From the NCBI RefSeq assembly GCF_003018255.1, contig NZ_CP027440.1: a stretch of 64,000 bases of DNA; one strand, given 5' to 3'. This DNA is from Escherichia coli. GTDB taxonomy: Bacteria > Pseudomonadota > Gammaproteobacteria > Enterobacterales > Enterobacteriaceae. Within the stretch, counting starts at the first letter, position 1. Every line of letters begins with the position of its first letter. This document shows, piece by piece, positions 31,880-35,803 of this stretch. Made by a program: the position numbers and the translations under genes. The notes under the pieces were generated by a model. It made no database searches. It saw only the letters and a list, made by a program, of their open reading frames with translations, and had not been told where the DNA came from.

Positions 31880-32269
31880 ATGGAATCATACTCGCAAAGC
31901 AGCAATAAATTAGATTTTCAGCACGAAGCCAGGATATTAAACGGCATATGGCTCATTACCGCTTTGGGTTTGGTGACAACCGCAGGACTGGCCCTGGTGA
32001 TCATCAGGAATGCCGCATTAATGAGTGAACGGCCCATTTGGGTAATAAGTTGCTTAATGATTGTTTTATGGTCAGGCATTATCTCGCATGGACGAAATAA
32101 GCTCCTTGAACTGGCAGGAAAATGCCATAGCGAAGAGTTGTGGAGTCCGGTTAGTTGCGCTTTTACAGGTGCATTAACACTCTATTACTATTTTATCGGC
32201 TTCTTTGGGATACTTGCCGCGATAGCTATAACGCTTGTCTGGCAAAGGCATACGCGGTTTTTTCATTAG
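31880..32269 (+). CDS. ybhM: small inner membrane protein, YbhM-like, shorter than I recall for K-12
   Basis: 129-aa ORF MESYSQSSNKLDFQHEARILNGIWLITALGLVTTAGLALVII with 3-4 hydrophobic segments, at the ybhM position. Confidence 0.6.
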   Translation: MESYSQSSNKLDFQHEARILNGIWLITALGLVTTAGLALVIIRNAALMSERPIWVISCLMIVLWSGIISHGRNKLLELAGKCHSEELWSPVSCAFTGALTLYYYFIGFFGILAAIAITLVWQRHTRFFH

Positions 32270-32304
32270 TCGTAAATGCACATACTAAAGAACTTAACCG
32301 AACT

Positions 32305-33261
32305 TCACATCGCCGCTTCATTTTTCGCCCGCAGCTTCTTCGCCTGGCTTTCCAGTAGCAGGTAACAGATCAGCGCCAGCAGCAGTGGGATAAAGTAATA
32401 CAGCACACGGTAAGCGAGTAGGGCGGCGATAATGCTACCTTTGGAGGTATGCTCCCCAGCCAGTAGTGCGATAAACACCGCTTCCAGCACACCAATCCCC
32501 GCCGGAATATGCACAATCACCCCGGCAATACTACTAACCAGCAACACGCCCAGTACAAAGAAATAGTTCACGCTTTGACCAAGTAACAGCCAGATTATCG
32601 CTCCCATGACCATCCAGTTAACGCTGGAAATCAGCATCTGGGCGAGGGCGAATTTCCATGAAGGCAGCACCAGCTTTTGCCCTTTGATGGTCATATGGCG
32701 GTGCTTCGCGAAAGCGCAAAACCACAAATAAACCGCGATAATCATCAATAAGCCAATGCCGAGAATACGCAGCGTGGTTTGATCGACATACCAGTGATCC
32801 GGCAGCTCCACCACGCCTGCGGTAAAGATAATCCCGGCCAGCAAAATATAGCCCAGCCAGTTGGTGGTAATACTGAGCGAGAAAATCCGCGTAATAGTGC
32901 TGCCCGGTAACCCTAGCCGCGAGTACAAACGATAGCGCATACCTATGCCGCCGACCCAGGTACTGAGCGTCAGGTTGAAGGCGTAGCAGATAAACGACAC
33001 CAGCATCACCTGGCGCTTCGCCAGTTTGTGACCGCAGTAGAAACGGGCGAGCAGGTCATAGCAGCCGTAAATCAGATAGCTGACGACCACCAGCCCGACC
33101 GCACTGAGCAGCGCAACGCGATTGTAGTCGCGGATGACCTTCCAGACCTCTTCCCAGTCCACTTTTTTGGCGTAGACCACCAGCAACACAATCACCGCGA
33201 TAAAAAACAGCCAGGTGAGGATCTTCTTTGCTAAGCGCCAGCGCGGGTGTGATTTACTCAT
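32305..33261 (-). CDS. ybhN: inner membrane protein YbhN (lysylphosphatidylglycerol-synthase-like TM domain)
   Basis: 318-aa polytopic [33 protein letters not shown]; start overlaps the clsB stop. Confidence 0.9.
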   Translation of the reverse strand: MSKSHPRWRLAKKILTWLFFIAVIVLLVVYAKKVDWEEVWKVIRDYNRVALLSAVGLVVVSYLIYGCYDLLARFYCGHKLAKRQVMLVSFICYAFNLTLSTWVGGIGMRYRLYSRLGLPGSTITRIFSLSITTNWLGYILLAGIIFTAGVVELPDHWYVDQTTLRILGIGLLMIIAVYLWFCAFAKHRHMTIKGQKLVLPSWKFALAQMLISSVNWMVMGAIIWLLLGQSVNYFFVLGVLLVSSIAGVIVHIPAGIGVLEAVFIALLAGEHTSKGSIIAALLAYRVLYYFIPLLLALICYLLLESQAKKLRAKNEAAM

Positions 33262-34502
33262 CAGGGTTTTACCCCCGTGTTTTCAGTTTCTACCCGATCC
33301 TGCGTTTCCATTGTCGGTTGTGCGGGGGGATCAACCTGCGCCAGACGTGGTGTATGTGCCGGAAGCCAGCCAACCAGCGCCGGGAAGTGGCGTAAAAAGT
33401 GGAACGCCAGCACGCTTTTGGTCAGGTTCCACCAGGTGCGTTTCGGCAGCATGGTCTCATCGACCTGCTGACAATCTGCGGCAATAATGCCGTTCAGATT
33501 ATCGCGCAGCGTCTGGTTAAAATGACGATCGTGGATGATGACATTTGCTTCGAGATTCAGTGACAAACTGAGCGGATCGAGATTACTGGACCCTACTGTC
33601 GCCCAGTGATCGTCCATCAATGCCACTTTGCCGTGGAGCGGGCGGCGGCGGTACTCAAATACCTGAACGCCGCCTTTAACCAGATAGTTATACAGCAAGC
33701 GCGCACCGACTCTGACAATCGGCATATCCGGTTCGCCCTGAATGATCAGTTTGATCCGCACCCCGCGCCGTGCCGCTTTACGCAAGGCGTGTAAAAATCG
33801 ATAGCCGGGGAAGAAGTAGGCGTTGGCGATAATGACTTCTCGCCGCGCCTGAGTGAGCATTTTCAGATAGTGACGTTCAATATCATCGCGATGTTCTTCG
33901 TTATCGCGCCAGACCAGCAATACCTGCGCTTCTCCCGGCTGGCGGTTCTCTTCCGCTTTGTGATGACGTCGCCACCAGCGTCGTGCCGCGCTCTGTCCAG
34001 GCAGGTTTTCCAGCTCAAACTGGAGAATATCTTCGACAATCGGCCCTTCAAGGCGTACCGCGTAATCCTGTTTAGCCTCTGGACCGTAGCTGGACATATG
34101 CTCGGCGGAGTAATTCAGCCCGCCAATAAAGGCGATACGCGCGTCGATCACCACAATTTTGCGATGCATCCGGCGAAACACATTGGTGCGCATACCAAAA
34201 AGGCGAGGACGGGGATCGTAGTAGCGAAATACCACGCCAGCTGCCGTCAGTTCATTGACAAACTCATCGCTGAGATCCGGCGAACCGTAGCCATCCAGCA
34301 AGACTTCCGCTTTCACCCCGCGTTGCGCTGCTGCCAGTAGCGCCGCATGCAGCTGTTTGCCGACGTCATCCTCAAACCAGATAAACGTTTCAAGAATGAT
34401 GCGTTCTTGCGCCTCGCCAATCGCCTTAAACATCGCGGGATAATATTGCTCGCCGTTTTCCAGCAACTGGATCTTATTGCCTTCGCGCCAGCTACATTTC
34501 AT
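33261..34502 (-). CDS. clsB: cardiolipin synthase B (phospholipase D superfamily)
   Basis: 413-aa ORF with two HxK(x)4D motifs (HRKIVVID and HGKVALMD). Confidence 0.93.
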
Positions 34503-35260
34503 AAATGAATCTCCGCACTTAAAGGGGCATGATCAGAAAGGTGTCGCCATGTCCGCAGCGGCAACGCGGTTGGCGCGCTGGCGCTGGCATTTTTGACATA
34601 GATCCTGTCCAGACGTAGTAGAGGAAATTGCACCGGAAACGTGCGCGCCGGGCGTCCGTGGGCGCGGGTAAATATCTCATCCAGCCCGGCCTGCATTTTT
34701 AACGGATGATTAGCTTTTTGCCGCCAGTCGTTGAAATCACCCGCCACCAATACTGGTTCGCCGTCCGGCAGCTCATTCACCCATTCGGCGAGCATCGCAA
34801 GCTGCGCCTGACGGTGCGCCTCACGCAGGCCCAGATGTACGCACATCACATGAATCGCTTTCCCGGTCATCGGCGGCACAATGCGGCAGTAGAGCACGCC
34901 GCGCTTTTCCGCACCATCGACCGAAACATCGCGATTCTCATAATGTTCAATGGGATAACGTGAAAGAACCGCGTTGCCGTGATGCCCTTCCGGGTATACG
35001 GCATTGCGACCGTAGGCGAAATCGCTCCACATGGTGTCGGCGAGAAACTCGTAGTGCGAGGTATCGGGCCAGTTTTCCACATGCAGCGGATGAACTTCGT
35101 GCGCGCCCATCACTTCCTGCAGGCAAACAATATCGGCGCTGACGGTACGCACGGCGTCGCGAAGTTCCGGCAAAATGAAGCGTCGGTTAAACGCGGTAAA
35201 GCCTTTGTGAATATTGATGGTGAGCACCTTGAACGAAAATTGTTGTGTTTGATCGGGCAT
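34499..35260 (-). CDS. ybhP: endonuclease/exonuclease/phosphatase (EEP) family protein
   Basis: 253-aa [24 protein letters not shown]; overlaps the clsB start. Confidence 0.9.
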
Positions 35261-35392
35261 AATTTTCCTGTCTTTGCCTCTTATCTCATTGAAATAGTGT
35301 AGTCGGCGTCACAAAAAGGTGCGGTCTTACGGAATTTTCCGTAAAGTTCGGTACTCTGAGTAAGTAGAGATAAATTCTTCAGGAGAGAAGCC

Positions 35393-35803
35393 ATGAAGTG
35401 GCAACAACGTGTTCGTGTCGCAACGGGTCTAAGTTGCTGGCAGATTATGTTGCATTTACTGGTAGTGGCGCTGCTGGTGGTGGGCTGGATGAGTAAGACT
35501 CTGGTTCACGTCGGCGTGGGATTATGCGCACTGTATTGTGTCACGGTAGTGATGATGCTGGTGTTTCAGCGCCACCCCGAGCAACGCTGGCGTGAGGTGG
35601 CAGACGTGCTGGAAGAGCTGACCACGACCTGGTATTTTGGCGCAGCGCTGATTGTGCTGTGGCTGTTGTCCCGCGTACTGGAAAACAACTTTTTGCTGGC
35701 GATTGCAGGGCTGGCAATCCTTGCTGGCCCGGCGGTAGTGTCTTTGCTGGCGAAAGATAAGAAGTTACATCACCTTACGTCTAAACATCGCGTACGCCGC
35801 TGA
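35393..35803 (+). CDS. ybhQ: inner membrane protein YbhQ
   Basis: 136-aa ORF with 4 hydrophobic segments; its 3' end overlaps the convergent ybhR 3' end. Confidence 0.85.

Follow-up and report, generated by a model that had tools for sequence, protein, structure and literature searches.

Does the ybhP-clsB-ybhN gene block of Escherichia coli encode one coherent unit for membrane-lipid remodelling, and what would YbhP and YbhN then contribute to the lipid synthase ClsB? We examined this question in a 64,000-nucleotide stretch of one E. coli genome (contig NZ_CP027440.1, RefSeq assembly GCF_003018255.1), hereafter called the window, where ORF (open reading frame) calling gave ybhP, clsB and ybhN as three consecutive intact ORFs on the minus strand at 32305-35260. 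The locus itself is an ordinary, annotated and strongly conserved arrangement and offers no surprise: the operon is already known from the literature and belongs to the annotated core genome of E. coli. Interest attaches mainly to what YbhP does, and to a possible role of YbhP and YbhN in the strain dependence of trehalose-phospholipid production. On balance, and with moderate confidence, we read the locus as the known stress- and stationary-phase-induced module for phospholipid head-group exchange, with a composite mechanism in which the reaction of YbhP is the weakest step.

Structure of the operon

The first gene of the operon, ybhP (34499-35260), encodes a soluble protein of 253 aa with the endonuclease/exonuclease/phosphatase (EEP) fold. 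It is followed by clsB, also called ybhO (33261-34502), the product of which is a transphosphatidylase of the phospholipase D (PLD) superfamily with 413 aa, 'cardiolipin synthase B', lacking an N-terminal transmembrane (TM) domain. The last gene, ybhN (32305-33261; proposed name pplT), encodes a polytopic membrane protein of 318 aa, which is a homologue of the MprF flippase domain without the aminoacyl-phosphatidylglycerol synthase domain. RefSeq names the same three genes in an E. coli genome that is 100% identical.

Both junctions on the minus strand can be read directly. At the first, the end of ybhP reads CAT TTA TGA, and the ATG of clsB lies inside it, so that stop and start overlap by 4 nt as ATGA (34499-34502). 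At the second, clsB ends with CCC TGA and the ATG of ybhN overlaps it as TGATG (33259-33263), one nucleotide being shared between the genes. Purine-rich stretches resembling Shine-Dalgarno (SD) sequences, GGAG for clsB and GGGGG for ybhN, are located 8-10 nt upstream of the starts, within the preceding gene. Terminator-like matches inside the block showed no excess (5, compared with 4.1 +/- 1.8 in shuffled sequence). The block therefore has the features by which a translationally coupled operon is recognized, namely a single strand, stop/start overlaps, internal SD sequences and no internal terminator. It is a genuine gene structure, and a chance pattern is excluded. A first-pass annotation, made from the letters of the window, had described a three-gene set with overlaps at both junctions, and this description was borne out. 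The range that it gave, 33261-35260, covers ybhP and clsB, but ybhN lies outside it except for the shared base 33261.

Conservation of the gene order

Of 5426 complete E. coli genomes, 5422 carry the whole block at 95% identity or more, which argues for a unit under selection. The first-pass annotation had further proposed a coherent membrane-lipid remodelling unit, a reading that would fall if synteny were not conserved outside Escherichia. Synteny was assessed in 80 loci from bacteria represented by one genome per species, which were collected by a YbhP-family profile search and whose ORFs were searched with the three E. coli proteins. In 59 of these loci, ybhP, clsB and ybhN are adjacent in this order on a single strand. 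The 59 loci comprise 8 from Enterobacterales, about 29 from Pseudomonas or Stutzerimonas, Cellvibrio, and 21 from Burkholderiales, so that the orders include Pseudomonadales and Cellvibrionales; the Burkholderiales with the triad include Ramlibacter, Variovorax, Mitsuaria, Rhizobacter, Acidovorax, Polaromonas, Xylophilus, Achromobacter and Lautropia. The PLD genes in the triads of Rhizobacter (672 bits) and P. viridiflava (622 bits) exceed the cut-off of the ClsB equivalog model. Among the 59 syntenic loci, 32 show the -4 nt geometry between ybhP and clsB, and clsB and ybhN overlap in 46; the starts were refined heuristically, with the E. coli proteins as alignment reference, so these counts are lower bounds. 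ClsB orthologues have been reported from beta- and gammaproteobacteria only (PMC6446866), in agreement with the range observed here. Since the synteny is conserved far beyond Escherichia, the remodelling-unit reading survives its test, and it is supported both by this synteny across beta- and gammaproteobacteria and by the EEP-PLD links described below.

The exceptions among the 80 loci are 18 lone Pseudomonas paralogue copies (L058, L060, L061, L063-L068, L072, L074-L077, L079, L083, L085 and L086), one locus at a contig edge, a lone copy in Marinimicrobium, and Citrobacter youngae. Fluorescent Pseudomonas carry a second YbhP paralogue with about 58-60% identity to E. coli YbhP and without clsB or ybhN, and for 10 of the 18 lone copies the triad of the same genome is also in the set. 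For example, the paralogue of L058 lies 3' of a glycogen-debranching-type gene and a gene for a PIG-L-family deacetylase, and 5' of an autotransporter gene. In C. youngae CCUG 30791 (L031, 6001-8900), ybhP and clsB are intact, and the gene directly after clsB is of the ybhL type and oppositely oriented, with ybhN and ybhM absent. Expanded forms also occur: a Cellvibrio metagenome-assembled genome (MAG) has the local duplication ybhP-clsB-ybhN-clsB-ybhN (L062, 6001-11311), and a Ramlibacter MAG has two tandem ybhN-like genes after clsB (L059, 8021-10002).

Properties of the three proteins

YbhP matches the EEP model PF03372 of Pfam with 83.5 bits (threshold 24.5) over residues 14-244, covering model positions 2-225 of 225. 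In an alignment of 115 representatives, consisting of E. coli YbhP and 114 diverse relatives with 35-62% identity, the catalytic and metal-binding set of the EEP fold (N16, E49, H142, D175, N177, D218, D243 and H244) is invariant or at least 90% kept, so that the family pattern N, E, D-x-N, D and S-D-H is present. The AlphaFold2 model of YbhP has a predicted local distance difference test (pLDDT) score of 97 and the four-layer alpha/beta-sandwich fold. From these features, YbhP is probably an EEP phosphodiesterase or phosphatase that depends on Mg2+ and is competent for catalysis. A search of PDB sequences with YbhP gave a marginal match to ExoIII and nothing more, and its top structural matches are uncharacterised structural-genomics proteins, with TDP2, nocturnin, CCR4-type nucleases and ExoIII among the closest characterised neighbours. 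The earlier label 'EEP nuclease-like' thus holds for the EEP fold, with its Pfam match and kept catalytic residues, but the nuclease part is a fold-level label only; the genomic context of YbhP argues for a lipid substrate. Hydropathy analysis of YbhP found no membrane-inserting hydrophobic element.

ClsB matches the NCBIfam equivalog NF008427 with 749.6 bits (cut-off 281) over model positions 1-408 of 409. Its PLD domains are matched by PF13091 and PF00614, and it carries two HKD motifs of the form HxK(x)4D, at H113 (HRKIVVID) and H290 (HGKVALMD). The equivalog score and the two motifs confirm that clsB encodes a PLD-type cardiolipin synthase, as had been proposed. Unlike ClsA, ClsB has no N-terminal TM helices: no match to PF13396 (PLDc_N) was found, and no window of the protein reaches a Kyte-Doolittle mean of 1.6, only a weakly hydrophobic stretch being present at 363-382. 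A PDB sequence search with ClsB returned no solved relative.

YbhN matches PF03706 (LPG_synthase_TM) with 56.1 bits (threshold 33.4) over residues 21-295, and hydropathy analysis shows multiple hydrophobic segments over residues 8-307, as in a polytopic protein. It also matches residues ~40-355 of the solved MprF structures 9goe, 9j8q, 7f47 and 7duw (E 4e-22 to 2e-17). The full-length MprF model NF033480 scored 164 bits, below its cut-off of 600, and was matched at positions 3-301 of 841 only. Because this full-length model failed, YbhN is a stand-alone flippase-like domain and not an MprF, and it is in this form, a lone flippase-type domain, that the expected MprF-like membrane protein was recovered.

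Published activities of ClsB and YbhN

The published biochemistry shows what the synthase of the module can do. ClsB is a promiscuous transphosphatidylase, which transfers the phosphatidyl group of phosphatidylglycerol (PG) or phosphatidylethanolamine (PE) to an alcohol acceptor. In vitro it forms cardiolipin from two PG (PMC8027125), and it can also form PG from PE and glycerol; its share in the cardiolipin made in vivo is small. When a Salmonella clsABC mutant received the complete operon (ybhP-clsB-ybhN) on a plasmid, cardiolipin was not only regained but made in excess, whereas ClsB with the H290A substitution was inert (PMC9241728). ClsB is essential for 6-phosphatidyltrehalose (PT) and 6,6'-diphosphatidyltrehalose (diPT) in Salmonella and in 4 of 6 E. 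coli strains, and these trehalose phospholipids activate the innate immune receptor Mincle (PMC6446866). The output of trehalose phospholipids differs between strains that share identical clsB genes, and the authors of that study suspected unidentified 'other interacting proteins' (PMC6446866). BW25113 and DH10B are diPT producers and DH5alpha is a non-producer; in our comparison, the YbhP, ClsB and YbhN proteins of BW25113 and DH10B are identical. For YbhN, which has been renamed PplT, an interaction with ClsB was detected by bacterial two-hybrid assay, and a pplT mutant shows a growth defect in late log phase and a competition defect (10.1101/2022.03.11.483950).

Association of EEP and PLD proteins among distant relatives

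In an exhaustive search of 1.84 billion representatives, 382 YbhP relatives were found at E <= 1e-30, and a Cls-like PLD was adjacent or fused in 8 of 12 independent contexts of the distant ones (35-50% identity). The arrangement of the two genes varies among these contexts. The order EEP-PLD is found in L091 and L089. The order PLD-EEP is found in L003, where a gene of the inositol-monophosphatase family stands ahead of the pair, and in the Bdellovibrionota loci L095-97, where the PLD has 700 aa. The two genes are convergent in L006 and fused in L002 and L087, and L088 has an EEP/PLD pair with ambiguous frames. The fusion proteins P0218 and P0271 share only 42% mutual identity, over 99% of their length. 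No EEP or HKD motif is missing from either, their linkers measure 10-16 aa, and both are genuine fusions and not frameshift artefacts. Two other candidate fusions were rejected. P0272 (L089) comes from a frameshifted assembly with a garbled EEP C-terminus and YbhP similarity in a second frame, and in P0284 (L088) the PLD similarity is divided among overlapping frames; the EEP-PLD adjacency remains in both loci. Because the association outlasts changes of gene order and has been fixed as a fusion, it points to a functional and probably physical link between EEP and PLD proteins. As evidence of such a link, a rearranged and fused association is much stronger than an operon inherited by descent.

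In place of ybhN, several distant YbhP genes have genes of other membrane proteins beside them, mostly with an overlap. The partner is a DedA/VTT gene in L006 (4411-5750; 4-nt overlap), a gene for a major facilitator superfamily (MFS) transporter in L090 (3-1756; 4-nt overlap) and a gene for a DUF2238 protein in L092 (3262-4747), and a VTT-Pyr_redox gene lies beside the natural EEP-PLD fusion in L002 (5136-7268). DedA and some MFS proteins have been implicated in lipid translocation. Since YbhP relatives overlap membrane-protein genes, they point to the membrane over nucleic acids, and the membrane partner of the EEP/PLD pair may be interchangeable. Soluble hydrolase-fold proteins are also found in this setting: P0276 is an EEP-NUDIX fusion protein, a NUDIX gene lies 5' of the EEP/PLD pair in L088 (4561-4917), and the inositol-monophosphatase-family gene of L003 (2947-3810) overlaps the PLD gene by 4 nt.

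Proposed mechanism and alternatives

In the head-group exchange module that we favour, ClsB, which has no TM segment of its own, is probably held at the inner membrane by YbhN, and YbhN probably moves the head-group-modified product of ClsB, or its substrate, between the leaflets. The MprF logic of a synthase joined to a flippase would then be divided over two coupled genes, clsB and ybhN. YbhP likely acts on ClsB, probably in physical contact with it, and most likely it would hydrolyse a phosphodiester or phosphomonoester of a lipid head group. Such hydrolysis would trim, recycle or pull a transphosphatidylation that is otherwise freely reversible, or would render it irreversible. The stop/start overlaps would keep the three proteins co-produced. 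Because trehalose builds up under the RpoS and osmotic conditions that also apply to the operon, trehalose phospholipids are a plausible physiological product of the module.

Several points weigh against this mechanism. First, coupling of translation at both junctions is deduced from the geometry of the overlaps only. Second, partial sets exist, such as that of C. youngae without ybhN, and several YbhP relatives occur alone. Third, the bulk phospholipid pattern of a pplT (ybhN) mutant was unchanged on thin-layer chromatography (10.1101/2022.03.11.483950). Fourth, clsB alone on a plasmid restored trehalose phospholipids in a clsB mutant, in which ybhP was presumably, and ybhN possibly, present (PMC6446866), and a requirement for YbhP is therefore not demonstrated. 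Finally, when the artificial fusion YbhP-(GGGGS)5-ClsB was modelled with an alignment that combined unpaired homologues with 2 natural fusions and 16 rows paired by operon, the domains were well folded, but the predicted template modelling (pTM) score was 0.64 and no interface was demonstrated.

A more specific and farther-reaching form of the mechanism can also be considered, which we put forward tentatively as a possible but not a probable account. According to this account, YbhP and YbhN would be the extra requirements of ClsB for making glycophospholipids. ClsB would build PT and diPT or some other lipid than cardiolipin. YbhP, attached to ClsB, would act on a phosphodiester of the pathway by editing or hydrolysis and thereby set both the identity and the amount of the product, and YbhN would bring that product across to the periplasmic leaflet, for onward delivery to the cell surface. 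The EEP-PLD pair, which some bacteria have as a fusion, would then be an unrecognised two-enzyme machine for lipid remodelling, present in at least one lineage of Bdellovibrionota as well as in proteobacteria. Phospholipid flipping across the bacterial inner membrane is largely unsolved, and YbhP and YbhN, should they be partners dedicated to ClsB, would be obvious candidates for filling both this gap and that of strain-variable trehalose-phospholipid synthesis. We believe that the conservation of the triad in beta- and gammaproteobacteria, together with the natural EEP-PLD fusions, gives concrete grounds for testing YbhP and YbhN as ClsB partners.

The alternative that survives best, although we find it doubtful, is that YbhP does not cleave lipids and, as a subunit, activates or stabilises ClsB, using its fold for binding or regulation, for example for sensing or removing a small-molecule ligand. 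There is a precedent in YmdB, the product of the upstream gene that raises the activity of ClsC (PMC8027125), and the EEP-PLD gene fusions and the tight coupling of the genes are compatible with such a role. The recurrence of Cls-like PLDs beside small soluble hydrolase-fold genes (NUDIX and inositol monophosphatase) and the EEP-NUDIX fusion can be read in the same way. However, the full EEP catalytic set, including both metal-binding and general-base residues, is nearly invariant in the 115 representatives, and because of this a purely structural subunit would be unexpected.

A looser grouping is less likely still. The three genes might share only a promoter and a stress regulon, with YbhP as a stationary-phase nuclease or nucleotide phosphodiesterase that has nothing to do with lipids and YbhN as a general membrane-homeostasis protein that does not serve ClsB in particular. 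The nuclease-type structural neighbours of YbhP would suit this proposal, as would its older annotation as a 'predicted DNase' (PMC2907692) and the lone Pseudomonas paralogues beside unrelated genes. PplT domains have a very wide distribution, with binding recorded to several Pgp enzymes besides ClsB (10.1101/2022.03.11.483950), and the normal bulk lipids of the pplT mutant fit as well. Mere co-regulation, however, would not lead one to expect that gene order and codon overlaps are kept across beta- and gammaproteobacteria, that the EEP protein re-associates with a Cls-like PLD in other gene orders, or that the two are fused in two such divergent proteins. Equally improbable is a module for bulk cardiolipin supply in stationary phase, as the name of the gene suggests, fine-tuned by YbhP and YbhN: ClsB makes cardiolipin in vitro, the plasmid-borne operon restores it and the level of clsB transcripts increases about 9-fold late in stationary phase, but clsB single mutants of E. 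coli and Salmonella have wild-type cardiolipin under all reported conditions, and ClsA and ClsC already provide its synthesis.

Promoter region and regulation

The upstream region of ybhP contains conserved elements that can be placed on the minus strand. The sequence CTACACT (35296-35302), 36 nt 5' of the ATG, is a putative sigma-S-type -10 element of the ybhP promoter; in the upstream regions of 10 Enterobacterales, TACA is invariant and the flanking bases are nearly so. An SD-like AGGA of ybhP lies at 35266-35269, and its GGA is kept at the same place of the alignment. In addition, the intergenic region between ybhP and ybhQ carries a perfect 16-bp palindrome, TACGGAAAATTCCGTA (35328-35343), centred about 37 bp 5' of the -10 element. 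Of 10 Enterobacterales genera compared, 9 have it almost unchanged ahead of ybhP, and it is a candidate regulator-binding site. An RcsB box, TN(G/A)GAN4TC(T/C)NA (PMC7913699), was considered but not assigned: the core GGA-N4-TCC fits, with 6 of 8 positions, but the two outer positions are mismatched. Scans for the sigma-70 promoter consensus and for terminators, within the operon and around it, gave nothing above the shuffled background, and the intergenic region upstream of ybhP had no sigma-70 match.

Published expression data place the operon among stress-responsive genes. Transcription of ybhPO is RpoS-dependent (PMC2907692), and inhibition of LolCDE induces ybhP, clsB and ybhN 17-33x, 12-24x and 4-9x, respectively, together with genes of the Rcs, Cpx and sigma-S regulons (PMC5105897); both observations give indirect support to a coupled, co-transcribed unit. 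In Salmonella, a sigma-E peak was found between ybhP and ybhQ by chromatin immunoprecipitation.

Flanking genes and lineage of the window

The operon is flanked on one side by moaABCDE, ybhL and a short ybhM, and on the other by ybhQ, ybhR, ybhS and ybhF, which is the arrangement of E. coli. The gene between ybhL and ybhN (31880-32269, plus strand) encodes only 129 aa, and this ybhM product matches just the C-terminal third of the Bax1-I model with 31.8 bits, under the cut-off, whereas ybhM of K-12 has 714 nt (237 aa). Most E. coli genomes match a 901-nt query over ybhM in two pieces that together extend over about 1224 nt, and the present lineage therefore has a deletion of about 323 bp by which ybhM is truncated. 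Over 32200-35400, identity across the operon reaches 99% or more in only 4 of the 5423 E. coli genomes that match, the others being 95-99% identical, and 100% identity over the operon was found in two human isolates from Japan, JNE23-011 and JNE112863. The window is from a sparsely sampled E. coli lineage.

Comparison with known systems

Compared with the published clsB operon of E. coli and Salmonella (PMC9241728; 10.1101/2022.03.11.483950), the locus in the window is the same in gene content, order, lengths and junctions; the PplT preprint also notes the operon in Enterobacteriaceae (10.1101/2022.03.11.483950). It differs in no essential point, only in that the block is 1-5% divergent from that of most sequenced E. 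coli and in that the adjoining ybhM is truncated. Among EEP lipid phosphodiesterases, the neutral sphingomyelinases and bacterial sphingomyelinase C offer a parallel for YbhP, but the identity is only ~21-23%, and TDP2 and nocturnin score equally well or better.

The ymdB-clsC unit resembles the present module in that a PLD-type Cls paralogue is preceded in an operon by a gene for a small soluble hydrolase-fold protein, and both units are induced in stationary phase. In contrast, YmdB is a macrodomain protein and YbhP has the EEP fold, and the clsC unit as published has no membrane flippase-like gene.

With MprF, the module shares the homology of YbhN to the flippase domain and the proposed pairing of a head-group enzyme at the cytoplasmic face with a dedicated flippase-type domain. 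The two systems differ in their enzymes, ClsB being a PLD-type transphosphatidylase and MprF having an aminoacyl-tRNA-dependent transferase. They also differ in architecture: MprF is one polypeptide, whereas clsB and ybhN are separate coupled genes, with flipping by YbhN as its putative activity.

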